Positions 3,959-29,275 are shown, numbered from the stretch's first letter. The stretch: DNA of 29,893 bases from an uncultured Caldilineaceae bacterium (GCA_964460505.1 CAYWSS010000002.1:1-29893); one strand, 5' to 3'. Numbers and translations are program-made. The notes: a model not told the origin generated them from the letters alone.

Positions 3959-5260
3959 TTGGGGCTATACTGCCCTGATTATTTTGAAGACAGGACAAAT
4001 CTGTTGAAACCATTGGCAAATTTAATGGGCCGCATCGCCCTGATTGGGGTTGGGGTGCTGATTCCGCTGCTGCTGCTGGATGTTGGGGTGCGCCTGATGG
4101 GCCTGGCCCCCCCGCCGGAACCCAATCCGGCCATTTGGGAACCGCACCCTTTGCTTGGCTGGTGGCATGTGCCCTACAGCGGCGGCACATTTCACAGCGA
4201 TTACGCCGAGTTTGAGGCCGAGGTGCGCATTAACGCCCGTGGCCTCCGTGACCGGGAAATTGGCTACGACAACCCGGATGGCGCCTTTCGGGTGCTCTCC
4301 CTGGCCGATTCATTTGGCGAGGCGCTCCAGGTAAATCTGGATGAAACTTATCACAAGCAACTGGAGGCACAACTGGCAGAATCGATGGGGCAGCCGGTTG
4401 AGGTGCTCAACGCCGGCGTGGGCGGCTGGGGCACCGACCAGGAAGCCATATTTTATCTGGCCGAGGGCTTTCGGTACGAGCCGGAGGTAGTGCTGCTGGC
4501 ATTTTTTGTTCGCAACGATGCCGTAAACAATTTCGGCCCGCTGGAACTTGAACGGAACGGTGGCGTGCAGCAAAAACAATTCTTTACATTGTCGCCTGCG
4601 GGCGAGCTAATTCCTCCCCCATTAGAGGCGGGGGAAACCGCGCAGCCTGCGCCGCAGTCCGAGCCTTCAGAGAAACCGGCCCTGATTGGGGCCGCGGATA
4701 CATTGTGGCAATACTCGGCGCTGTACCGCTTTCTGGTGCCTTATTTAAGGGATATTCCCCCGGTGGTGCAGCAGTTAGGCCCCAGTGGAATTCTTGGGGG
4801 CGAGGCGGTGGTTCGGGCCGGTCATCCCACCACGCCCATTCCGTTTTTTGTCTACCGCGAGCCGGCTGACGACCAGTTTGAGTTGGCCTGGAAACTGACC
4901 GAAGCCATCATCGCTGCCCTGCGCGATGAAGTGGAAAATCGTGGGGCAAAGCTGGCCGTGGTTCTCATTGGCGCACCGGAGCAGGTGTATTCCGAAGAAT
5001 GGAAAAAAACGGTGGCCGGACACCCGAATATGCAATTGTACAATTGGGATTTGAATGCGCCCAATCGCCGCCTGACCAGGTTCTTAAGCCAGGAGGGTAT
5101 TCCTCATCTGGATTTGCTGCCGGTCTTTCGACAGGCTGCGGAAAAGCCAAACACCCCGCCGCTACACTTTCAACATGACCAGCACTGGACGCCGGCAGGG
5201 CATAAGCTGGCCGCAGAAGCCATTCATGAATTCCTGGCCAACGACGTGATGGGACAATAG
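3959..5260 (+). CDS. membrane-anchored SGNH/GDSL hydrolase-family protein (AlgX/AlgJ-like)
   Basis: N-terminal TM; block I LADSFGE, block II VLNAGVGGWGTDQE, block III FFVRND, block V HDQHWTPAGH; true start uncertain (TTG 4004 or ATG 4025 plausible). Confidence 0.8.
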   Translation: MGLYCPDYFEDRTNLLKPLANLMGRIALIGVGVLIPLLLLDVGVRLMGLAPPPEPNPAIWEPHPLLGWWHVPYSGGTFHSDYAEFEAEVRINARGLRDREIGYDNPDGAFRVLSLADSFGEALQVNLDETYHKQLEAQLAESMGQPVEVLNAGVGGWGTDQEAIFYLAEGFRYEPEVVLLAFFVRNDAVNNFGPLELERNGGVQQKQFFTLSPAGELIPPPLEAGETAQPAPQSEPSEKPALIGAADTLWQYSALYRFLVPYLRDIPPVVQQLGPSGILGGEAVVRAGHPTTPIPFFVYREPADDQFELAWKLTEAIIAALRDEVENRGAKLAVVLIGAPEQVYSEEWKKTVAGHPNMQLYNWDLNAPNRRLTRFLSQEGIPHLDLLPVFRQAAEKPNTPPLHFQHDQHWTPAGHKLAAEAIHEFLANDVMGQ

Positions 5261-5267
5261 GTACTAA

Positions 5268-5566
5268 GGAATGGCGCGTAAATAACTTACCCAATTGGGG
5301 CCGGCAACATATTGCGTATTACGTACTCCGTAAAGGTACAGGTTCAGTAACCCCGGTGCTGTGGCCGGTCTCCGACCAAGCCACCTCTAGGCGGGCGCGG
5401 TCAGGAGACCGGCCACAGCGCGATTCTGACGGGTTCACAGAACTTGTATCCGTAAAGAGCAAAATTATACGCAACACTTGCGCCGGACCCCTGCGGGTCA
5501 GTGCAGGTGTACGCAGTACGCAATACGCAATACGAGGAAATGGGTAAGTTATTTAATCCCGATTCC
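5268..5566. mobile_element. MITE-like element A (26-bp imperfect TIRs, TAA flanks) between convergent genes
   Basis: Left GGAATGGCGCGTAAATAACTTACCCA vs reverse complement of right end GGAATCGGGATTAAATAACTTACCCA (22/26); TAA at 5265-5267 and 5567-5569; no ORF. Confidence 0.65.
5336..5449. mobile_element. MITE-like palindromic element B, copy 1 (nested in element A)
   Basis: Imperfect TIR TACAGGTTCAGTAACCC / GGGTTCACAGAACTTGTA; internal perfect 16-bp stem 5358-5373/5404-5419; flanking direct repeat CCGTAAAG (5328-5335, 5450-5457); second copy at 10320. Confidence 0.75.
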
Positions 5567-5599
5567 TAAGCGACTCTCTTCCAACGATTACATACGCCC

Positions 5600-6727
5600 T
5601 CACCACACTCGGTTTTTATCGCCCACATAAGCTGCTTTGGGTCGGATGAGCCGTCCTGTTTCCTGCTGTTCAAAGCAGTGGGCGGTCCAGCCTGCCACGC
5701 GGCCAATGGCGAAAATGGGGGTGAATAACTCAGTGGGCAACCCCAACCCGTGTAATAACAGGGCGGTGTAAAACTCCACGTTGGTTTGCAGGTTGCGGCC
5801 CGGTTTGTATTCGGCCAGCAAATCGACTGCTGTCTGTTCCACACTGCGAGACAGGTGGTACAGGGCCATATTGCCATCGGCCCGGTAGAAACGCTCTGCC
5901 GCACTGGACAGTACCCCGGCCCGGGGATCGCGCACTTTGTATACCCGGTGCCCAAAGCCCATCAACCGTTCACCCTTCTCCAGTTTTTGCCGTAAATAAC
6001 CTTCAGCTTGGTTCGCCTCGCCAATTTCAAAAACCATATCCAGCGCCGGGCCGGGCGCGCCGCCGTGCAGGGGGCCTTTTAATGCTCCCAGCGCTCCCAC
6101 CACTGCCGAAATCATATCGGACCGGGTAGCAATAATGACCCGGGCCGCAAACGTAGAGGCGTTGAAGCCGTGATCGACCACGGTGTTTAGATAGGTTTCC
6201 AGCCCGCGCACGCGAGCCTCGCCGGGGTGCTGCCCGGAGAGCATATAAAAGGTGTTAGCCGCGTGCCCCAGGTCCACTTGCGGGGAAATTGGCTCCTTTC
6301 CGTTCAGCAACCGCCAGTAGGCGGCCACAATTGTTGGAAACGCGGCCACCACCGTGAGCGCATCCCGTTGAGAATTGCTGGAGGGGCCGCTGTCCGGCAT
6401 GTTCAGGCTGAGCGTGCCGGCGGCCATCCGCAGAGCATCCATGCCTGATACGCACGCTCCGGCGGCGGCGCGCAACAAATTCAGGGTAGCTTCCGGCAGT
6501 GTTCGATGCGTATTCAGCGCCTGTTTGAAAATGGACAGCGAATCGGCATTGGGCAGGACATCGTGCCACAGCAAGTAGACGGTTTCTTCAAAGGTGGCGT
6601 TGGCCGCCAGTTCTTCCAACGGATACCCGGCAATAATCAGTTCACCCTTTTGCCCGTTAACGCTGCTCAAGCGCGTTTCGGCAGCAATTACGCCCTCCAA
6701 TCCAGATTTGATTACGGTGTTTGGCAT
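5600..6727 (-). CDS. citrate synthase family protein, NVEF variant (CitA/CS-I-like)
   Basis: GLEGVIAAETRLS start, DHGFNASTFAAR, GPLHGGA, GFGHRVYKVRDPR, GRVAGW, LIRP; the catalytic Asp position reads NVEFY. Confidence 0.9.
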   Translation of the reverse strand: MPNTVIKSGLEGVIAAETRLSSVNGQKGELIIAGYPLEELAANATFEETVYLLWHDVLPNADSLSIFKQALNTHRTLPEATLNLLRAAAGACVSGMDALRMAAGTLSLNMPDSGPSSNSQRDALTVVAAFPTIVAAYWRLLNGKEPISPQVDLGHAANTFYMLSGQHPGEARVRGLETYLNTVVDHGFNASTFAARVIIATRSDMISAVVGALGALKGPLHGGAPGPALDMVFEIGEANQAEGYLRQKLEKGERLMGFGHRVYKVRDPRAGVLSSAAERFYRADGNMALYHLSRSVEQTAVDLLAEYKPGRNLQTNVEFYTALLLHGLGLPTELFTPIFAIGRVAGWTAHCFEQQETGRLIRPKAAYVGDKNRVW

Positions 6728-6734
6728 TAGTTAC

Positions 6735-7916
6735 TCAATTCATTTTTATAACGGTCATAAGCGCTTGCGACAGCCGCTTGATACCTTCTTTGATTTTGGT
6801 CTCGTCCGAGTTGGAAAAATTGAGGCGGAAAGTGTTGTCTCCTGCGCCATCGACATAAAATGGTTTGCCCGGCACAAAGGCTACATTGAGTTGGGTGGCG
6901 GCCTCGAACAGCTCCATTGCGGATACATTTTCGGGCAGCGTGACCCACACAAACATTCCTCCTTCGGGCCGGGTAAATGTCACTTCCGGCGGAAGACATT
7001 CTTCCAGCATGGCAACCATCAGATTTCGCTGCTTTTTGTAGGCGGTTTTAATAGTGGACAGGTGGCGGTCCAAATCGTTGTCGTGCAGGTACCGGTAAAC
7101 AATGCGCTGCGCCAGATAGTTTGAGTGCAGATCAGAGGCTTGTTTGGCCACGACAATTTTTTCCATAATAAAGTTGGGAGCGCAAATCCAGCCCAGACGC
7201 AGCCCAGGCGACACCACCTTTGAAAAGGACCCCAACAGCACAATATTTCGCTCGATAAATTTGCGCATAGAGGGCTGGGGTTCGCCGGCAAATCTCAACT
7301 CGCCATAGGGGTTGTCTTCCACCAAAATGGTATCCCAATCCTGCAAAATGCCGGCTACGGCCCGGCGCTTTGCCCGCGAGTAGGTGATGCCGGACGGATT
7401 TTGAAAATTGGGTACGGTGTAAAACAGTTTCACCGGCCCGTTTTTCAGAGTCGTTTGCAACCGGTCTGTATCAATGCCATCTTCCAGCAAAGGCACGGCC
7501 TGAAATTGCGGTTCGTAGAGCGAAAACGCCTGAATTGCTCCCAAATAGCCGGGACGCTCCAAAACCACCCGGTCGCCGGGGTTGATAAATAATTTGCCAA
7601 TCAGGTCAAGCCCCTGCTGCGAGCCGTTGGTGATAAGAATTTCGGACGGTTCAATGGATAGCCCGTACCGTTTGTACCGGTTGGCAATAAATTCCCGCAG
7701 GGGCGGGTACCCCTCGGTGGTGCTGTATTGCAGCGCTTTTGTTCCGTCCCGGCGCAGTACTTTTTGAGTGGCGGCGGCAATCTCTGCCACGGGAAAGAAG
7801 TCCGGGTTGGGCAAGCCGCCGGCAAACGAGATGATTTCCGGGTTTTGAGTTACCTTCAGGATTTCTCTGATAAAAGATTTGGGGGTGTTGTACATTCGAT
7901 TTGCAAAAGTGGTCAC
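6735..7916 (-). CDS. PLP-dependent class I/II aminotransferase (MocR/ARO8/LysN-like, no HTH)
   Basis: IISFAGGLP, ITNGSQQGLD, PNFQNPSG, EDNPY, GSFSKVVSPGLRLGW (PLP Lys), EGGMF, RLNFS; GTG start with SD GGAG. Confidence 0.9.
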   Translation of the reverse strand: MTTFANRMYNTPKSFIREILKVTQNPEIISFAGGLPNPDFFPVAEIAAATQKVLRRDGTKALQYSTTEGYPPLREFIANRYKRYGLSIEPSEILITNGSQQGLDLIGKLFINPGDRVVLERPGYLGAIQAFSLYEPQFQAVPLLEDGIDTDRLQTTLKNGPVKLFYTVPNFQNPSGITYSRAKRRAVAGILQDWDTILVEDNPYGELRFAGEPQPSMRKFIERNIVLLGSFSKVVSPGLRLGWICAPNFIMEKIVVAKQASDLHSNYLAQRIVYRYLHDNDLDRHLSTIKTAYKKQRNLMVAMLEECLPPEVTFTRPEGGMFVWVTLPENVSAMELFEAATQLNVAFVPGKPFYVDGAGDNTFRLNFSNSDETKIKEGIKRLSQALMTVIKMN

Positions 7917-7952
7917 AATTTTTCTCCGTGTTAAAATTTGGCTTATGTTCAG

Positions 7953-7972
7953 TACAAGTGACCGGCACTTGT
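7953..7972. repeat. short REP-like palindrome, half copy of the 12106 repeat
   Basis: TACAAGTGACCGGCACTT (7953-7970) identical to 12103-12120; CAAGTG-N5-CACTTG is self-complementary. Confidence 0.6.
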
Positions 7973-7985
7973 TCCAGACATAAGC

Positions 7986-8663
7986 CTAAAATTTTTGCCC
8001 GGAGTATACCACAAAGGCATAATTTTTGTACCAGCAATGAGCTTGCTTAAAGCCCACTTGCTTCAACCAGGCCAACTGCACCTCCAGCGGCGATGAAATA
8101 TCCTCCTGCCGGCGCTCAATGGAAAGCGCCAGATCGGCCTCGGACACGCCCAGCGCTCGGGTCTGTTGCAGCCAGGTGCGCCGGTAGTGCTGCTCGATAG
8201 CCGGTGTTTCGCCCAGCGCCTGGTCGGCGTTGATGAAGATGCCGTTCTTTTGCAAGGCATGGTACACTTTTCCAAACAGCGCCAGTTTATTTGTGTTGGC
8301 CAGGTGGTGAATAGACAGGGCCGAAACCACGACCTGATATGGGCCGGTAATTTCTTCTTTGGCATAATCCATCACCTGATACTGGAATTGTTTGGGGTTG
8401 TGGGCAAAACGCTCGCGGGCCTTATTGAGCATGTCTTCCGAAAAGTCTACCAGTGTCAGTCTGGCATTTGAAAATGCCTCGGCCACCATTGCGGATAACA
8501 GGCCCGTTCCGGCTCCCAGATCAAGAATTTCAATATTAGCGTCCCGCGAAAAGGGGATGAGTTCCAGCGCGGTGCTGTAAAAATCGTCAAAGCACGGCAG
8601 GAGTTGGCGGCGGGTTGCATCGTAGGTTGGGGCTGATTTATCAAACAGGGTTTTGACACGCAT
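7986..8663 (-). CDS. class I SAM-dependent methyltransferase (CmoA/small-molecule MTase-like)
   Basis: Motif I ILDLGAGTG, motif II LVDFSEDML, VVVSALSIHH, GIFINAD; SD GGAG. Confidence 0.9.
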   Translation of the reverse strand: MRVKTLFDKSAPTYDATRRQLLPCFDDFYSTALELIPFSRDANIEILDLGAGTGLLSAMVAEAFSNARLTLVDFSEDMLNKARERFAHNPKQFQYQVMDYAKEEITGPYQVVVSALSIHHLANTNKLALFGKVYHALQKNGIFINADQALGETPAIEQHYRRTWLQQTRALGVSEADLALSIERRQEDISSPLEVQLAWLKQVGFKQAHCWYKNYAFVVYSGQKF

Positions 8664-8696
8664 TTTTTATCTCCGAATTTACAATTTTTGGAAAGT

Positions 8697-8726
8697 ATTA
8701 TAGAATAAATTGTAATAGCTTGTCAA
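8697..8726 (-). promoter_or_regulatory. consensus sigma70 promoter for the MTase-aminotransferase-citrate synthase operon
   Basis: Minus strand exact TTGACA (8726-8721), 18-bp spacer, exact TATAAT (8702-8697). Confidence 0.75.
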
Positions 8727-8747
8727 TATTGATTTTATAATCAATAT
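8726..8747. promoter_or_regulatory. candidate operator, perfect 9-4-9 inverted repeat
   Basis: ATATTGATT-ttat-AATCAATAT abutting the leftward -35 and overlapping a possible rightward TTGATT-N17-TATTTT (8729-8757). Confidence 0.6.
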
Positions 8748-8773
8748 AAAGTATTTTAAAACGGGGTTGGGCG

Positions 8774-9997
8774 ATGAAAAAGTCGGGGTATTTATCTGCC
8801 GGAGAAGCGGCAGAAGCGTTGGGCATCAGCCTGCCCACCTTGTATTCGTATGTGAGCCGGGGCCTTCTTCGCTCGGAAGAAGCAAATGCCGGCAAGCGCA
8901 CGCGGCGCTATCGTCAGGAGGATGTGGAAAAGCTGCAACGGCGTAAAGCGCAGCGCCGCAACCCCGATAAAGTGATGGAGGACGCGCTGCATTGGGGCGC
9001 GCCGCTGCTGGAATCGGCAATTACGTTAATTGAAAATGACCGCTTCTACTATCGTGGCCGTGATGCCGTGGAACTGGCAGTTAATCACACCGTAGAAGAG
9101 GTTGCTTCTTTGATTTGGAACGGCAATTTGACCGCGTCTCTGCCGGAATTGTCAACGGTAACACCACCTTCGGGGCAGGTACGGGCAATTTGGCGGCAGC
9201 TTGGCGGGCAATCGCACATGGAGCAGTTTCAATCATTGCTGCCGGTGGCCGCAATTGATGATTTGGCGGCATACGATTTGCAGCCGGATGCGGTTATTCG
9301 GACCGGGGGGCGTATTTTGCAATTGATGGCTACCGTGGCCGCCGGTGACGCTGCGTTGGAGGGGACCATTGCCCAACGACTGCAAAAAGGGTGGGTGCCC
9401 CACGATGAAGACGCCGCAAAAATAATAAACATGGCCTTGATTTTGTGCGCCGACCACGAACTCAATGTGTCGTCATTTACGGCGCGGTGTGTGGCCTCGG
9501 CGGGAGCCACTCCGTATCAAGCGGTGATTGCCGGGCTGGCGGCGTTGCAAGGGGTAAAACATGGGCGGCTGACCGAACGGGTGGAAGCATTTATGCGCGA
9601 AATTGATTCGCCGGCCGGTATCCGTGGCGTGATGGCGGGCCGGCTCAAACGGGGGGAGACCGTCCCGGGTTTTGGCCACCCGCTGTACCCCGGCGGGGAC
9701 CCGAGGGCGCGGGTTCTGCTTGAGCAACTGGCGGCGGTCTATCCGGAATCATCAGGGCTGGCGCTGGCCAATGAAATTGTCGATGAGGCCGCTGCATTGT
9801 TGGGCAAGCAGCCCACTGTTGATTTTGGGCTGGTGGTGACGGCCCAGATGCTGAAATTGCCACCGGACGCTCCGGTAACATTGTTTGCTCTGGGGCGCAC
9901 CATCGGCTGGATTGGGCACGCTCTGGAGGCATACCGGGCAGACCGGATAATCAGACCCCGGGCGCGGTACGTGGGAGATTTGCCGCTTCTGGATTAA
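8774..9997 (+). CDS. HTH (excisionase/MerR-like) - citrate synthase domain fusion, putative regulator or enzyme-regulator
   Basis: N-terminal YLSAGEAAEALGISLPTLYSYVSRGLL HTH; CS motifs ADHELNVSSFTAR, GVKHG, GFGHPLY, DPRA, TVDFG, GRTIGW, IIRPRARY. Confidence 0.85.
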   Translation: MKKSGYLSAGEAAEALGISLPTLYSYVSRGLLRSEEANAGKRTRRYRQEDVEKLQRRKAQRRNPDKVMEDALHWGAPLLESAITLIENDRFYYRGRDAVELAVNHTVEEVASLIWNGNLTASLPELSTVTPPSGQVRAIWRQLGGQSHMEQFQSLLPVAAIDDLAAYDLQPDAVIRTGGRILQLMATVAAGDAALEGTIAQRLQKGWVPHDEDAAKIINMALILCADHELNVSSFTARCVASAGATPYQAVIAGLAALQGVKHGRLTERVEAFMREIDSPAGIRGVMAGRLKRGETVPGFGHPLYPGGDPRARVLLEQLAAVYPESSGLALANEIVDEAAALLGKQPTVDFGLVVTAQMLKLPPDAPVTLFALGRTIGWIGHALEAYRADRIIRPRARYVGDLPLLD

Positions 9998-10523: not shown

Positions 10524-12044
10524 ATGATCACCTATTCAGCATCAGCCGAAACGGTTTATAATGTATCGCGTCAACTGAACGCATCTTTGGATTTGGATGA
10601 AGTATTGGGCAAAGTTTTGAGGCTTACCGTGGATGCCACCGAGGCCACCCGGGGAAGCCTTTTCTTGTTGGATGAAACCGGGCGGGTCATGCGGCAAATC
10701 CTGGCCCGGCCCAACCAATCGTCCGAGGTGTCGCGGCGGAATGTAAACACAGTTATGGAGCAGGGCTTGGCCGGCTGGGTGTATCGGCATCAATATGGCG
10801 CGTTAGCTGCCGATACCACCAAAGACGAGCGGTGGGTTCGACTGCCGGATGATGAAGAGATCACCGGCTCGGCGTTGGTGGTGCCGCTGCTGTATCAGGA
10901 GCGGGTCAATGGCCTGCTGGCGCTGCATCACAAGCGTATCCGTTTTTTTGATGAATCGCATTTAGCCCTGGCGGCGGGAATTGCCGGACAGGCCGCTATT
11001 GCTCTGGAAAACGCGCGGCTTTTTACTCAGGTAAATAGTGAGCGGGAAAGCTTTTTTGCGCTCATTAACTCAATGCCCATTCCGGTGTTAGTAGTTGATC
11101 ATAATAATTGTTTGACGTTTAGCAACCAAACGGCCCAACATAGTCTGCTGCTTAAACAGGTCAACCGCCCGCTCTTTGAAATTGAGGGAGGGGATCAACT
11201 CCAATCGGCCCTGAAGAATCTTAAGAACGGAGTCACAAATCACACCGAGGTTCATTGGCCCGATAAGCGTGTTTTTAATGTGTCTGTTAAGCAGGTTCCG
11301 CAGGTGGGAAATGTGGTGGCCATGGATGACATAACCTACTTGAAAGAACTGGATGCTATGAAGACCCAGTTTGTGGAAACAGTATCGCACGATCTAAAAA
11401 ATCCACTGGGCGTGATCATGGGCTTTATTCATCTATTGGGGCAGGAAAAGAATCTTTCCCCCTCTGGAAAAACCAGCTTAAAAAGCATCAGGAAAAGTGC
11501 TGACCATATGTTGGCCCTCATCACCGATCTGCTTGATCTGGCCCGAATTGAGGCCGGCATGGCCGGGGCAGCGCAGGAACAAAACCTGGTTAAAATTATT
11601 CTGAACACGTTGCCCAATTTTACGCTGCAACTGGAAAAGAAAAATATGTCGCTGGATACGGATTTGCCGCTGGAGCCGGCGCTGGTGTTGGGGAACAAGG
11701 TCCGTTTGTCGCAGGTGGTTTCTAACTATGTGGGTAATGCTATCAAATATACCTTTGAGGGGGGCAAGATTAAAATTAAGCTGGTGCGGGCAGGGGCCAA
11801 AGTTCACTTTAGCGTAACCGATAACGGCCCCGGAATTTCTCCGGCGGGCCAGTCGCAACTGTTTCAAAAATTCTATCGGGTGCCCGAAGTTCACGCCAAA
11901 ACCGATGTTCAGGGTACCGGGCTAGGCTTGTCTATTGTAAAGGCTATTGTTGAAGGGTACAACGGGCAAGTTTGGGTGGAGAGCGAGGTGGATAAGGGCA
12001 GCACGTTTGGTTGTTTCCTGCCATGTATTGATACTGAGACGTGA
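10524..12044 (+). CDS. soluble GAF(-PAS) sensor histidine kinase
   Basis: GAF (ALVVPL, ALENARLF), H-box VSHDLKNPL, N-box NYVGNAIKY, G1 DNGPGI, F-box LFQKFYR, G2 GTGLGL; no TM segment. Confidence 0.92.
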   Translation: MITYSASAETVYNVSRQLNASLDLDEVLGKVLRLTVDATEATRGSLFLLDETGRVMRQILARPNQSSEVSRRNVNTVMEQGLAGWVYRHQYGALAADTTKDERWVRLPDDEEITGSALVVPLLYQERVNGLLALHHKRIRFFDESHLALAAGIAGQAAIALENARLFTQVNSERESFFALINSMPIPVLVVDHNNCLTFSNQTAQHSLLLKQVNRPLFEIEGGDQLQSALKNLKNGVTNHTEVHWPDKRVFNVSVKQVPQVGNVVAMDDITYLKELDAMKTQFVETVSHDLKNPLGVIMGFIHLLGQEKNLSPSGKTSLKSIRKSADHMLALITDLLDLARIEAGMAGAAQEQNLVKIILNTLPNFTLQLEKKNMSLDTDLPLEPALVLGNKVRLSQVVSNYVGNAIKYTFEGGKIKIKLVRAGAKVHFSVTDNGPGISPAGQSQLFQKFYRVPEVHAKTDVQGTGLGLSIVKAIVEGYNGQVWVESEVDKGSTFGCFLPCIDTET

Positions 12045-25309: not shown

Positions 25310-26014
25310 TTACATCAAACGAGGCAGCGGCGTAATGCACTCCGGCACATCGTTGCGGGGATTGTTGACCAGGGTTGAAACGGGGTAGGCCGTCATCTGT
25401 TGGGCGGGGTAGGGCTTGAGCAAGCCCTGCAATTGCTCCGGTTTCTGTTCTGCCGGGTCAAGCCACTGCGGGTAATATTTCGGCGGCAAAATCACCGGCA
25501 TCCGATTGTGGATTTTCTCCATCAATTCGTTGGGCGGGGTGGTGATGATGGTGCAGGAAAGCACCTCATCGCCGTGGGGCGATTGCCAGTATTCCCACAA
25601 ACCGGCAAAAGCAAACGGCTCCTGCGATTCCAGTTGAATGTACATTGGGGTTTTGGCCCCCCTTCTTTTCCCCCCTCCGGGGGGGGAAGAAAGGGGGGGA
25701 TGCCACTCGTAGAAGCCGTCCGTCAAAATCAGGCAGCGACGCCGGCGGTAAGCCACCCGGAAGGAGGGTTTCTGGGCCAGGGTTTCGGAGCGGGCATTAA
25801 TCATCCGGTTGCCAATTTTGGGGTCTTTGGCCCAGGAGGGAATCAGGCCCCACCGGAAAAAATCAATTTGATTTTGGCCGTTGTTGGCCACCACCGCCAC
25901 CGGTTGCGAGGGGGCAATATTAAAGCGTGGCGAGTACTCTTTTGGCGGCGTGAACCCGACAAACGATTCCGCTAATTTTTTTGCATCAGCATTTAAAGTA
26001 AATCGCCCACACAT
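25310..26014 (-). CDS. SOS response-associated peptidase (SRAP, YedK/HMCES family; abasic-site crosslinking protein)
   Basis: MCGRF N-terminus, PRFNIAP, WGLIPSW, INARSET, DGFYEW, AGLW, IHNRMPVIL. Confidence 0.95.
   Translation of the reverse strand: MCGRFTLNADAKKLAESFVGFTPPKEYSPRFNIAPSQPVAVVANNGQNQIDFFRWGLIPSWAKDPKIGNRMINARSETLAQKPSFRVAYRRRRCLILTDGFYEWHPPLSSPPGGGKRRGAKTPMYIQLESQEPFAFAGLWEYWQSPHGDEVLSCTIITTPPNELMEKIHNRMPVILPPKYYPQWLDPAEQKPEQLQGLLKPYPAQQMTAYPVSTLVNNPRNDVPECITPLPRLM
25657..25699. repeat. REP-like GC hairpin inside the SRAP coding sequence
   Basis: CCCCCCTTCTTTTCCCCCC-TCCGG-GGGGGGAAGAAAGGGGGGG, translated in frame as part of HPPLSSPPGGGKRRG. Confidence 0.6.
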
Positions 26015-26123: not shown

Positions 26124-26603
26124 TTAGCCAACATGCGCCCGTCGCCCGGATTCGATGAGCGTTTTGAGATTGGACATGCTGCGTCGCATAGCCTTTTGGG
26201 TAGAACTGCGCCGCCCCAGAAAATCGAAGATTGAGGCAATGATGCCGCGCGGGCTGTATTTCCACGTCCATTTGAAGCGGGTGCCGGCGCCACTCGATTC
26301 AAATTCCCACACCATTTCGCTGCCGGCGGCAAATGGACAACTTGAGGCAGTGTCGATTGCCTTTACCCGTGAGGCGGACGGCATTTGATAATCCACCACC
26401 TCCGCTTCCCAGCTATAAACCGCGCCGCCACCCTGCCTGGCATCAATGCGCAAAAGAGTTCCCCGCCTGAGCGGTTTGGGGGTGAGCATTTCCACGGCTT
26501 CAATCTGGTCGGCCCATTCCTGCCAGTTTTGTAAATCGTGGCAAAAACGAAAAACATCGGCCCGGGGGACTTCAATGTCAATTTGTGCTTTAAGTTGCGG
26601 CAT
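26124..26603 (-). CDS. SRPBCC / START-like (polyketide cyclase/dehydrase family) protein
   Basis: IDIEVPRADVFRFCHDLQNWQEW start pattern, WEFESSGAGTRFKW, C-terminal helix MRRSMSNLKTLIES; start trimmed to 26603. Confidence 0.75.
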   Translation of the reverse strand: MPQLKAQIDIEVPRADVFRFCHDLQNWQEWADQIEAVEMLTPKPLRRGTLLRIDARQGGGAVYSWEAEVVDYQMPSASRVKAIDTASSCPFAAGSEMVWEFESSGAGTRFKWTWKYSPRGIIASIFDFLGRRSSTQKAMRRSMSNLKTLIESGRRAHVG

Positions 26604-26773
26604 TTTGATATCCTGTGGGTATTGTAATTTAAGTATCACTATTTTACTATGAACCGCCCCTCACCGCCAAACGCCCACCGGGTTTGAATATCTGCAAAAA
26701 GGATATTCTTCGCGTCTGGACAAGCTTGATGCTATAATGACAAAAATATAGATTTTGGGATGGTAACGCAACC

Positions 26774-29275
26774 GTGAAACGAAAACTACGGGGAATGAAA
26801 CGCAGTGCCATTGAGCTGGATTTTAATCTCTACCGGGTCAATGTGCCCATAGCCGGGCTGGCCGGGGCCAACCTGAGCGTAATTGACATCTGGCCCGAAG
26901 GGGTTGGCAAGACAATTGTGTTTGTGCACGGGTACGCCGGCTGCGCCGAAACGTGGGAGCATCAGATTAACTGTTTTTCCCGCACCTACCGGGTAATTGC
27001 GCCGGATTTGCGCGGGCACGGCCAGAGCGACGCCCCGCTGACCCAATACACCATGCCCGAACTGGTTGCCGACCTGCGTACCATCTCCAAAACGCTCAAC
27101 CTGCCCGAAAAATTTATTTTGGCCGGCCACTCGTTTGGCGGTTCAATTTGTGTTGAGTACGCTAACACTCACCCGGAACAGCTCGAAAAACTGGTGCTGA
27201 TTGCCACCGCCGGAGAGTATCCGCTGCCCCGCATGGCGGCCTGGGCGTACCGGCTGCCGACGGCCTTCTTTCGACTGTGGTGGGATTACCGGCCTCGCTG
27301 GAATGCCGAACCGCACGTCATGAAACGGATGGCTATTAATAATATGCGTAAATGGCAAGCCTGGCCGCTGCTGAAAAATATTCACACGCCCACGCTGATT
27401 ATTACCGGCGAGCGGGACAGCTACTTTCCCCGCTACGTGTTTGACGACCTGAGTGAACAGATTCCCAATGCCGAAGTGTACGATGTGGGGGCTGCCAAAC
27501 ACAAAGTGCAGCTTGAGCGCCATCAAGCGGTAAACCGGGCCATTGAGCGGTTTGTCTCTGATGGCCGGCACGGCTCGTGGCGCGATCAGCAAATGGAGCA
27601 GTCTGTGGTTTTGGGGGTGCGGCGCTGGCTGGCAAATTACAACAAAGATACCCCCTCAACCGTGCCAATCCCCCGCCAACCGCTGCACAGATTTCTGGAA
27701 AGCGCCGCCGACTGGATGCCCAGGCGTGCCGCTACGGTATTTTTCGGGTCGTCACTGACTTACCGCCAGCTTGACCAGCAGGTGAATCAATTTGCGCACG
27801 CCCTGCACGGACTGGGTGTAACCCCGGGCAGCCGGGTAATGATTGTGCTGCCCAACATCCCGCAGTTAATTGTGGCCTATTTTGGCGCGCTCAAAGTGGG
27901 GGGGGTGGTGGTGCTATCTAACCCGGAGGCAGACGCGGCCTTAATTGTTGAGCAGATTGCCCGGACCGAAGCCTCCATCCTGGTGACATTGCAGGATTTT
28001 GGCGGGCTGGTGAATATGGCCTTGCAGAAAACCACGCTGCAAACCGCAGTTCTGGCCGATGTTCGGGATTCGGTTTCGGCCAAGGCCTACAAAGAACTGG
28101 TGGCCCGCTGGGGCGTAAAAAAATCGCCGGGCGGGTTGGCCGGTGCCGCCGGGCAATGTATTGCCATGCCTGATTTTATGGCCGATGCCGCCACCTTGCC
28201 CCCCGCCATCAAGGTGGCGCATGACAGTCTGGCGGCTATTGTTTACACCAGCGGCACCACAAAAACGCCCAAAGGCGTTTGTTTAACGCACGCTAATCTG
28301 GTGGCCAATGCGCTGCAAACGCGCCACTGGATTCAAAATCTTAAGTATGGCGAGGAAACGTTTATGGCAGTGGTTCCCCTGACTCACAGTTATGGAATGA
28401 CCACCGCTATGAACATCCCCATTGTTATGGCGGCCACCATTGTTATGCTGCCGGTGTTTGAACTGGAGCAAGTGCTGCACCACATCTCGGAATACAAACC
28501 GACGGTATTTCCCGGCGTTCCGGCTATGTATACGGCCATCAACCAGTCCCCAAATGTGCGCGGCTATGGCCTGGAAAGCATTAAGGTCTGCATCAGCGGC
28601 GCAACCCCGCTGCCGGTCGAAGTGCAGGAGGCGTTTGAAAAACTAACCCGGGGCCGATTGATTGAGGGGTACGGCCTCACCGAAGCCTCGCCGGTTACGC
28701 ACGCCGATCCCATCGGTGGGGGGCGCAAGGTTGGCTCCATTGGTTTGCCAATTCCAAACACCGATGCCAAAATTGTCGATCTGGTCAGCGGCGAGTCTGT
28801 TCGGTACGGCCACATTGGCGAGTTGGCCGTAAGAGGGCCGCAGGTTATGCAAGGCTACTGGAATGATGAAGAAGGTACCGCCGAAGCCTTGAAAGACGGC
28901 TGGCTTTTTACCGGCGATGTTGCCGTTATGGATAGAGACGGCTATTTTCAAATTATCAGCCGCAAGCGGGATACCATTATGTCCGGCGATTACAGCGTTT
29001 ATCCCCGCGATGTGGAAGAGGTGCTGTACGAAAACAGCAAGGTGCTGGAAGTAGCGGTGGTTGGGGTTTCAACCGAGGGGAATAGCCAAAAGGTGAAGGC
29101 ATTTGTTGTGCCACGCCCCGGAACCGACCTCTCTAAAGAAGAATTGCTGGAACTGTGCCGCCACCGGCTGGATGAATACGCCGTGCCGTGGGACATTGAA
29201 TTCCGCCAGGAGTTGCCTAAATCTTTTGTGGGCAAGGTGCTGCGCCGGATGCTTGTGGAAAACAGTAATCAGTAG
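26774..29275 (+). CDS. alpha/beta hydrolase fused to long-chain acyl-CoA ligase (ANL adenylation enzyme)
   Basis: N-terminus VFVHG, DLRGHG, GHSFGG, GERD, AKH; C-terminus YTSGTT, GYGLTE, TGD, PKSFVGKVLRR; single continuous frame; start 26774 GTG or 26795 ATG. Confidence 0.88.
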   Translation: MKRKLRGMKRSAIELDFNLYRVNVPIAGLAGANLSVIDIWPEGVGKTIVFVHGYAGCAETWEHQINCFSRTYRVIAPDLRGHGQSDAPLTQYTMPELVADLRTISKTLNLPEKFILAGHSFGGSICVEYANTHPEQLEKLVLIATAGEYPLPRMAAWAYRLPTAFFRLWWDYRPRWNAEPHVMKRMAINNMRKWQAWPLLKNIHTPTLIITGERDSYFPRYVFDDLSEQIPNAEVYDVGAAKHKVQLERHQAVNRAIERFVSDGRHGSWRDQQMEQSVVLGVRRWLANYNKDTPSTVPIPRQPLHRFLESAADWMPRRAATVFFGSSLTYRQLDQQVNQFAHALHGLGVTPGSRVMIVLPNIPQLIVAYFGALKVGGVVVLSNPEADAALIVEQIARTEASILVTLQDFGGLVNMALQKTTLQTAVLADVRDSVSAKAYKELVARWGVKKSPGGLAGAAGQCIAMPDFMADAATLPPAIKVAHDSLAAIVYTSGTTKTPKGVCLTHANLVANALQTRHWIQNLKYGEETFMAVVPLTHSYGMTTAMNIPIVMAATIVMLPVFELEQVLHHISEYKPTVFPGVPAMYTAINQSPNVRGYGLESIKVCISGATPLPVEVQEAFEKLTRGRLIEGYGLTEASPVTHADPIGGGRKVGSIGLPIPNTDAKIVDLVSGESVRYGHIGELAVRGPQVMQGYWNDEEGTAEALKDGWLFTGDVAVMDRDGYFQIISRKRDTIMSGDYSVYPRDVEEVLYENSKVLEVAVVGVSTEGNSQKVKAFVVPRPGTDLSKEELLELCRHRLDEYAVPWDIEFRQELPKSFVGKVLRRMLVENSNQ

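Follow-up and report, generated by a model that had tools for sequence, protein, structure and literature searches.

A helix-turn-helix/citrate-synthase fusion and its conserved operator: a candidate regulator of citrate synthesis in many bacterial phyla

Results

A fusion protein divergent from a citrate synthase operon

The window analysed here is a stretch of 29,893 nucleotides of DNA from an uncultured Caldilineaceae bacterium (GCA_964460505.1, CAYWSS010000002.1:1-29893). It contains a gene whose product joins a helix-turn-helix (HTH) domain to a citrate synthase (CS) fold, hereafter the fusion. Across a divergent 110-bp spacer lies a run of three genes, coding for a methyltransferase (MT), an aminotransferase (AT) and a second citrate synthase, CS2 (Table 1). 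We propose that the 407-aa fusion is probably a one-component transcription regulator with a sensor of citrate synthase fold, controlling the citrate synthase operon that it faces.

Table 1 Coordinates of the features discussed, in the window unless a locus handle is given
Feature	Position	Strand	Remarks
CS2	5600-6727	-	375 aa; CitA-type (BsCS-I-like) citrate synthase
Aminotransferase (AT)	6735-7916	-	393 aa; GTG start, GGAG ahead of the start
Methyltransferase (MT)	7986-8663	-	225 aa; predicted S-adenosylmethionine-dependent carboxyl O-methyltransferase, CysG/BelI/MM_2633 family
HTH-citrate-synthase fusion	8774-9997	+	407 aa
Operator GTCAAT-ATTGATT-TTAT-AATCAAT-AT	8722-8747		26 bp; three TCAAT/ATTGA half-sites
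Perfect 9-4-9 palindrome ATATTGATT-TTAT-AATCAATAT	8726-8747		100% complementarity
-35 box TTGACA of the MT-AT-CS2 promoter	8721-8726	-	promoter scan
-10 box TATAAT of the MT-AT-CS2 promoter	8697-8702	-	18-nt spacer
Second perfect inverted repeat TTACAATTT-N19-AAATTGTAA	8679-8715		flanks the -10 TATAAT
Terminator-like hairpin and T-run	5469-5483	-	about 117 nt past the CS2 stop codon
HMGL-fold partner genes	L024 5443-6825; L064 1347-2708; L077 4253-5578		divergent from the fusion
HMGL-fold partner genes, further loci	L103, L106, L114, L133, L138, L140, L142, L147, L153, L162
PALP genes	L003 6005-6976; L009 5493-6458; L011 5988-6950; L026 5992-6969

A preliminary description, made from the sequence of the window alone, had placed the four open reading frames (ORFs), the 110-bp spacer and the gaps of 69 nt (MT/AT) and 7 nt (AT/CS2) exactly where we find them. 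Its further observations stand as well: an exact TTGACA-N18-TATAAT promoter and a perfect palindrome in the spacer, an excisionase/MerR-like HTH followed by a full citrate synthase fold, and an NVEF motif in CS2. Neither of the two gaps contains a terminator-like site, and the hairpin with its T-run beyond CS2 likely marks the end of the operon; MT, AT and CS2 are thus plausibly carried on one transcript. Past the CS2 stop codon and ahead of the hairpin, the heptamer TACGCAA is repeated in tandem (3.6 copies, 5510-5534).

Residues 6-60 of the fusion (nt 8789-8953) match the Pfam models HTH_17 (35.8 bits, cut-off 27) and MerR_1 (32.1 bits, cut-off 21.6), and residues 74-396 (nt 8993-9961) match Citrate_synt at 216 bits, over positions 3-357 of a model of 357. 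The AlphaFold2 (AF2) model, with a predicted local distance difference test (pLDDT) score of 84, shows a winged HTH with a β-hairpin wing, then a linker, then a complete CS fold. The HTH is built as helix-helix-hairpin-helix over residues 6-62, ending in a short helix (48-62); the linker, residues 66-79, falls below a pLDDT of 50 and is probably flexible. The CS fold superposes on PrpC/CS structures with a TM score of 0.77 (Foldseek). The HTHs of the PDB closest to that of the fusion are those of TipA, SoxR and MerR, all weakly matched (E 0.02-0.1), and no structure solved there joins an HTH to a citrate synthase.

Conservation was followed across 71 fusions from many phyla. The recognition region of the HTH, T-L-Y-x-Y-V-S-R-G, is invariant or nearly so, and is paired with a DNA site that is equally invariant (see below). 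In the CS domain, the fraction of members keeping the residue is 0.99 for H263, 0.96 for H302, 0.94 for D350, 0.93 for H228 and 1.00 for each of R311, R375 and R394. This set comprises the catalytic His-His-Asp and the arginines that bind oxaloacetate, conserved at 93-100%; since all of them are kept, the ligand pocket appears to be under selection, for ligand sensing or for catalysis. The 'HGG' motif is retained in 87% of the fusions. The window's own clade has HGR instead, together with GFGHPLYP where GFGHRVYK is usual; the latter change would remove basic side chains near the phosphates of coenzyme A (CoA), and CoA binding might be weakened in this clade. Against curated citrate synthase models the fusion scores far under the cut-off (TIGR01800, 157.6 bits vs 421.3; NF009005, 155.5 vs 332), and among the models of NCBIfam it reaches the cut-off of none.

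CS2, for its part, matches Citrate_synt at 387 bits and passes the subfamily model NF009005 (349.9 bits, above the cut-off of 332). Its best solved relative is CitA of Bacillus subtilis (PDB 2c6x, 1e-94). CS2 carries HGGAPGP and NVEF, in which Glu318 replaces the catalytic Asp that the fusion retains as Asp350. The NVEF motif is typical of the subfamily: it is found in 2c6x, and 97% of 59 partner citrate synthases have Glu at the position of the catalytic base, all of them with HGGAPGP.

The fusion is widespread and auto-annotated as citrate synthase

A search of species genomes with the single protein gave no close relative, and an alignment-based search was used instead. It found the fusion in at least 596 species genomes, of taxa that include Chloroflexota, Acidobacteriota, Gemmatimonadota, Rubrobacteraceae, Binatia, Latescibacterota, Myxococcota and Alpha-, Beta- and Gammaproteobacteria. 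The best species match, at 63% identity, is from a member of the Caldilineaceae, and cultured carriers include Agrobacterium fabrum (on pAt), Burkholderia cepacia, Deinococcus and Ensifer. A word-indexed search returned 7977 matches; among the matches listed both domains are present, and the names given are 'citrate synthase', 'citrate synthase family protein' and 'helix-turn-helix domain-containing protein', as was to be expected from the preliminary description, which held that such fusions are auto-annotated as citrate synthase. The N-terminal 90 residues alone gather 511 clusters at 50% identity (E <= 1e-10).

An operator conserved across phyla

Alignment of the intergenic regions gave an operator consensus, ttGTCAAT[A/C]TTGATT-N4-AATCAATAT, that is, ...-nann-AATCAAT-aT. 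The palindrome of the window is the right-hand two-thirds of this element, and the first half-site of the operator overlaps the -35 box of the divergent promoter. The extended motif occurs once in the window, and 100 shuffles yielded no match even at two mismatches. A looser core pattern is found no more than 200 bp upstream of the fusion gene in 65 of 78 species loci; in 7 further loci, where an inserted gene separates the two, the operator is found at the divergent promoter. Elsewhere the same loose pattern matches about 11 times in 953 kb. In a position weight matrix of 63 loci, the GTCAA positions, which lie outside the search pattern and read TTGAC on the partner strand, are 94-98% conserved.

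The exact 22-base motif was then counted in a species collection of 596 Gbp: it occurs at 116 sites, for about 0.07 expected by our own arithmetic with equiprobable bases. Among 80 stretches fetched from around these sites, 77 have a fusion gene beside the motif. The operator is present on replicons of cultured bacteria too, namely A. fabrum pAt and a Deinococcus plasmid. In a Desulfobacula metagenome-assembled genome (L155 7173-7198) the exact operator adjoins a sigma-54-type activator, and in loci L098 and L161 it stands with CS2 only.

In the window, TTGACA-N18-TATAAT (minus strand, 8726 to 8697) is the sole 12/12 promoter match in 5.3 kb and points into MT-AT-CS2. Across species, we looked for TAnnnT on the partner strand downstream of TTGACn. 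It lies at 17 nt in 22 loci, at 18 nt in 10 and at 16 nt in 4 (36 of 61 in all), for about one locus at every other spacing. This pile-up at 16-18 nt identifies TTGAC as the -35 box of the promoter of the partner gene, of which the promoter in the window is the local instance. Relative to the predicted transcription start, the wide dyad ATTGAT-N6-ATCAAT is centred at about -46.5, and the third half-site lies over the -35 box. The right end of the motif is overlapped by the ATG of the fusion gene in several species.

Such an arrangement could also be thought of as RNA, the palindrome serving as a leader attenuator or stability element and not as a DNA site for a protein. A stem of 9 bp closed by a 4-nt loop is indeed possible, directly before or over the fusion start codon in several species, but both arms are invariant with no compensatory change or other covariation, the loop varies, the conserved GTCAAT falls outside the stem, the element keeps a fixed position relative to a promoter of the other strand and no Rfam family matches it: we rejected the RNA element, to which hardly any probability can be given.

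The second inverted repeat of the spacer shows, by eye, no obvious conservation in the nearest relatives. The same region carries a 31-nt imperfect direct repeat (8675-8705 and 8731-8761, 71% identity). These repeats may be the site of another factor.

Citrate synthase is the regular partner

The preliminary description had suggested a survey of gene neighbourhoods, in which the fusion was to co-occur with an NVEF citrate synthase, a methyltransferase and an aminotransferase. The first of these is amply found. Sufficient upstream DNA was available for 71 species loci; a divergent CitA-type citrate synthase is present in 58 of them, directly adjacent in 48 (gap 32-400 bp) and with one intervening gene in 10. 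The MT-AT-CS2 trio, on the other hand, was seen in the window only, out of about 160 loci, and citrate synthase is the only regular partner among them. When 2771 ORFs from 81 loci were clustered all against all, the sole clusters of wide distribution were shadow ORFs of the two CS genes; no further neighbour is widely conserved, and there is thus no larger conserved operon. By comparison of sequences, the conserved unit is the fusion, the divergent CitA-type (NVEF) citrate synthase and the operator.

Where a CitA-type enzyme is absent, its place is most often filled by an HMGL-fold enzyme, encoded divergently from the fusion in L024, L064, L077 and ten more loci. These proteins are 66-76% identical to each other, and relatives 75-86% identical to them are named citrate (Re)-synthase by the Joint Genome Institute. 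Two non-homologous enzyme families with the same reaction are thus found under the same operator, which argues for citrate synthesis as the regulated function. Distant fusions of Proteobacteria (31-45% identity) face CoA-transferases, DUF2332 or an SDR-MFS-VOC run; those of cultured bacteria keep the operator yet face other genes, as expected of a family of transcription factors.

Several loci carry additional genes. A LeuB equivalog stands between the operator and CS2 in L023 (5707-6786; TIGR00169, 425 bits, cut-off 353) and, 71-86% identical to it, in L113, L159, L160 and L122; isocitrate, or some other 3-substituted malate, may be its substrate. In Promineifilaceae-type Chloroflexota loci, a short Thr/Ser ammonia-lyase (PALP) gene is placed between the operator and the fusion and is co-directional with the latter, so that in L003, L009, L011 and L026 the regulator gene would come second in its own operon.

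On A. fabrum pAt (L201 3788-11158), the CS2/HTH-CS pair and its operator adjoin an extracytoplasmic-function (ECF) sigma factor, FecR, a TonB-dependent receptor and an iron-siderophore ABC cluster, a context that hints at citrate being produced for iron acquisition. The RefSeq starts of both CS genes overlap at this locus and are probably set too far upstream. Finally, Streptomyces coelicolor has two divergent putative citrate synthases, SCO5831 and SCO5832 ('citA3' and 'citA4'), the intergenic region of which is bound by MtrA (PMC12323332). They may be an actinobacterial version of the fusion/CS2 module.

The aminotransferase and the methyltransferase

AT matches Aminotran_1_2 (Pfam) and has the SFSK lysine motif of class I pyridoxal phosphate (PLP) enzymes in its translation. 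It is predicted to be of the LysN/KAT-II/PH0207 type: its full-length matches are PDB 1x0m (3e-108) and 2egy, LysN (1e-99), and it resembles these enzymes over the whole length, PLP-lysine motif included, but no other gene of the lysine (alpha-aminoadipate) pathway lies nearby. Copies 67-69% identical occupy the equivalent position in the close relatives L001, L085 and L135, and a distant one (36%) is located past CS2 in L154. The enzyme could link Asp/Glu to oxaloacetate/2-oxoglutarate.

MT matches Methyltransf_25 (Pfam), as well as PDB 3dtn (1e-51) and 9fcd (1e-44). The latter leads to CysG and BelI, Ca2+-dependent O-methyltransferases for which an HHD metal motif has been defined, and which form an ester at the C1 carboxyl of 3-isopropylmalate and 3-sec-butylmalate (PMC11408123). 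The HHD of MT consists of H118, H119 and D187, aligned to H122, H123 and D191 of CysG/BelI (PDB 9FCD, 9FCE); R17 and R183 match the substrate ligands Arg22 and Arg187, and the apolar pocket is kept. MT differs from them at Trp163, where they have His167 and MM_2633 also has Trp, and in its context: CysG and BelI belong to beta-lactone clusters with a homologue of isopropylmalate synthase (IPMS), ligases and a methylesterase, and none of these genes is present in the window. Because this family methylates the carboxyl of 3-alkylmalates, methylation of a hydroxy-polycarboxylate product is plausible. MT could esterify such an acid; citrate and isocitrate are themselves substituted malates.

Distant HHD-type methyltransferases recur in L010, L108 and L126. 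In L083, a close relative (61% identity), the operator faces two methyltransferases and no citrate synthase (4326-5896). One is Tam-like and the other is a homologue of MT, 57% identical, under the same operator; downstream, a GAF histidine kinase is syntenic with positions 10524-12044 of the window. Altogether, the closest relatives (at least 60% identity) show CS2 alone, AT-CS2, MT-CS2, or MT-MT without CS2. AT and MT are lineage-specific additions and not parts of a conserved pathway.

A biosynthetic gene cluster was considered for the region and rejected: the flanks consist of ordinary chromosomal genes (among them M23 peptidase, SGNH hydrolase, GAF histidine kinase, EamA, CobS, glycosyltransferases). 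Further along the window, an ORF of 833 residues (26774-29275) consists of an alpha/beta-hydrolase domain fused with an AMP-binding (adenylating) enzyme. It adjoins a SRPBCC/polyketide-cyclase-like ORF of the opposite strand (26124-26639), with a SRAP gene (25310-26014) just past the latter.

Discussion

A proposed citrate-synthase-fold regulator

We now propose a mode of action for the fusion. The CS fold would supply the dimer and the ligand pocket, and the probably flexible linker would tether to it a MerR-type winged HTH. A dimer with two such HTHs would bind the operator, which abuts and overlaps the -35 TTGACA of the divergent promoter, and from there would control the facing operon. Its core target would be the CitA-type citrate synthase, with AT and MT inserted under the same promoter in the lineage of the window. 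The fusion probably represses itself as well, since the operator lies just upstream of its own start codon and, in some species, over it. The signal is most likely a citrate synthase ligand, either oxaloacetate with or without acetyl-CoA, or citrate; the open-to-closed domain movement of the CS fold would then alter the engagement of DNA by the HTH. Between the two possible signs of regulation, we lean slightly to repression relieved by the ligand over activation.

The preliminary description had likewise seen in the fusion a one-component regulator of the facing operon, built on a repurposed citrate synthase domain. Regulation gains strong comparative support from the MerR-like HTH, the operator and the promoter, but 'repurposed' may be too strong a word for a domain with a full catalytic set.

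Several observations weigh against a regulator of this kind. DNA binding by the fusion is suggested by its co-conservation with the operator only, and three of the exact motif sites, those of L098, L155 and L161, have no fusion gene adjacent. The operator itself has three half-sites instead of a simple dyad, which the proposed mode of action leaves unaccounted for. The AF2 model lacks the long coiled-coil helix by which MerR proteins dimerise; the spacer of the partner promoter is of 17-18 nt, and the dyad is placed upstream of and over the -35 box, not inside the spacer. With neither a coiled coil nor an operator within an over-long spacer, the fusion is not a canonical MerR regulator. The regulator's own promoter was not located: the plus strand of the window offers TTGTCA-N19-TATAAA, a candidate with weak support across species. 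This sequence would, by eye, suit the classical MerR mechanism with its operator in a 19-bp spacer, which we tried and set aside for want of support in the other species. Finally, complete conservation of the catalytic residues is as much in keeping with an active enzyme as with a sensor.

Alternative explanations

This last point is the substance of the alternative that survives best, namely a trigger enzyme: the fusion may still be an enzyme, because it keeps all the catalytic and oxaloacetate-binding residues of a citrate synthase. It would catalyse citrate or methylcitrate synthesis and bind DNA as well, with transcription reporting the flux through its own active site, as with BirA or PutA; this differs from the regulator proposed above on catalysis alone. 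The conservation of His-His-Asp and of the three arginines at 93-100%, of 'HGG' in most members, and of Asp350 where the partner has Glu all point that way, as does a CS domain that spans the whole Pfam model and superposes on PrpC/CS. The changes of HGG to HGR and of GFGHRVYK to GFGHPLYP in the window's clade, and scores far short of the curated models (157.6 vs 421 bits and 155.5 vs 332), speak against it. We regard catalysis by the fusion as possible, though clearly the less likely case.

A more elaborate version can be formulated for the family as a whole, and we offer it as a speculation of still lower probability. In it, the fusions would be trigger enzymes across phyla: a CS that is still catalytic would read oxaloacetate and acetyl-CoA together through domain closure and switch between overlapping arrangements of the three half-sites, one over the -35 box and the other upstream, so that the state of central carbon metabolism would set the level of a second citrate synthase of Si or Re type.

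The preliminary description had further assembled MT, AT and CS2 into a dedicated pathway, in which the three enzymes would transaminate, condense the product with an acyl-CoA and methyl-esterify the result under a pathway-specific regulator, the fusion. The genes do share a promoter, the gaps are short and no terminator lies within the run; the family of MT methylates the C1 carboxyl of 3-alkylmalates (PMC11408123), and MT keeps the HHD motif, the counterparts of R22 and R187 and the apolar pocket; HHD-type methyltransferases lie under the operator in five loci, and AT-CS2 recurs in close relatives. As a conserved unit, the pathway does not hold: the trio is confined to the window, most loci have the citrate synthase alone, and L083 has methyltransferases without one. 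No ligase, esterase or other tailoring gene lies nearby, the surrounding genes are ordinary, and CS2 passes a curated model of a citrate synthase subfamily. We consider such a pathway improbable.

Less probable again, to the point of being quite unlikely, is a hetero-oligomer, that is, a mixed citrate synthase of the fusion and CS2, with the DNA motif bound by something else or being a promoter and nothing more. Citrate synthase active sites take an Arg from the neighbouring subunit, and the two genes are tightly linked and have complementary catalytic bases, Asp and Glu. Yet about 18% of the fusions have no CS2 neighbour and are paired with unrelated enzymes, and the motif tracks the fusion there; moreover, a -35 box by itself does not show 94-98% conservation along with 20 bases of flank from phylum to phylum.

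Relation to known systems

A citrate-synthase-fold regulator would have its closest analogues in MocR, GabR and PdxR. There too, a whole enzyme fold with its catalytic-site residues kept serves as the module of dimerisation and ligand sensing, and the gene is often divergent from its target operon and autoregulated together with it. The differences are in the parts: a GntR winged HTH where the fusion has a MerR-type one, an aminotransferase of PLP fold type I where it has a citrate synthase, and another ligand chemistry. MerR, SoxR and TipA share with the fusion the type of N-terminal winged HTH and a palindromic operator at a divergent promoter, but have a coiled-coil helix and an operator inside a spacer of 19-20 nt, whereas the fusion acts, as proposed, at a promoter with a 17-18-nt spacer and from an operator upstream of and over the -35 box.

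In B. subtilis, the citA/citR pair is divergent too. The CitR-citA and CcpC-citZ/citB pairs are cases of a dedicated regulator for a citrate synthase gene, as proposed for the fusion, and CS2 of the window is of the CitA subtype; CitR and CcpC, though, are LysR proteins with a sensor like the periplasmic binding proteins, while that of the fusion would have a citrate synthase fold. CcpC senses citrate (PMC8514465). A regulatory role is also attributed to CitA of Caulobacter, a citrate synthase paralogue; it differs from the fusion in that the role is not one of transcriptional binding and the protein has no DNA-binding domain, none being mentioned (PMC7083601). BirA and PutA are metabolic enzymes with a DNA-binding domain of their own and a regulatory role; in the fusion, catalysis is only a candidate property. 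As in the class that holds MocR, BirA, PutA and ROK, the fusion unites an enzyme fold and a DNA-binding domain in a single chain, and a conserved operator stands at its own or the divergent promoter. Such a class of enzyme-fold one-component regulators is already known, but the fusion family appears unstudied: in line with the preliminary description, which knew of no characterised role for the arrangement, full-text searches of the literature yielded no description of a regulator made of HTH and citrate synthase, or of its operator.

Implications

The entry of carbon into the tricarboxylic acid (TCA) cycle constitutes a central control point of metabolism. Its transcriptional control is known from CcpC and CitR in Bacillus and from ArcA and Cra in E. 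coli; elsewhere, and especially in Chloroflexota, Acidobacteriota and Gemmatimonadota, it is to our knowledge poorly understood. The fusion family offers a ready-made triad of regulator, operator and target, and its presence in tractable hosts (Agrobacterium, Burkholderia, Deinococcus, Ensifer) makes it directly testable. Meanwhile, the label 'citrate synthase' put on the fusion inflates TCA annotations in metagenome-assembled genomes. The recurring carboxyl methyltransferases of HHD type hint at an unexplored methyl-esterification of TCA-type acids. If the CS fold is indeed the sensor, it would provide a new scaffold for biosensors of oxaloacetate, acetyl-CoA or citrate.

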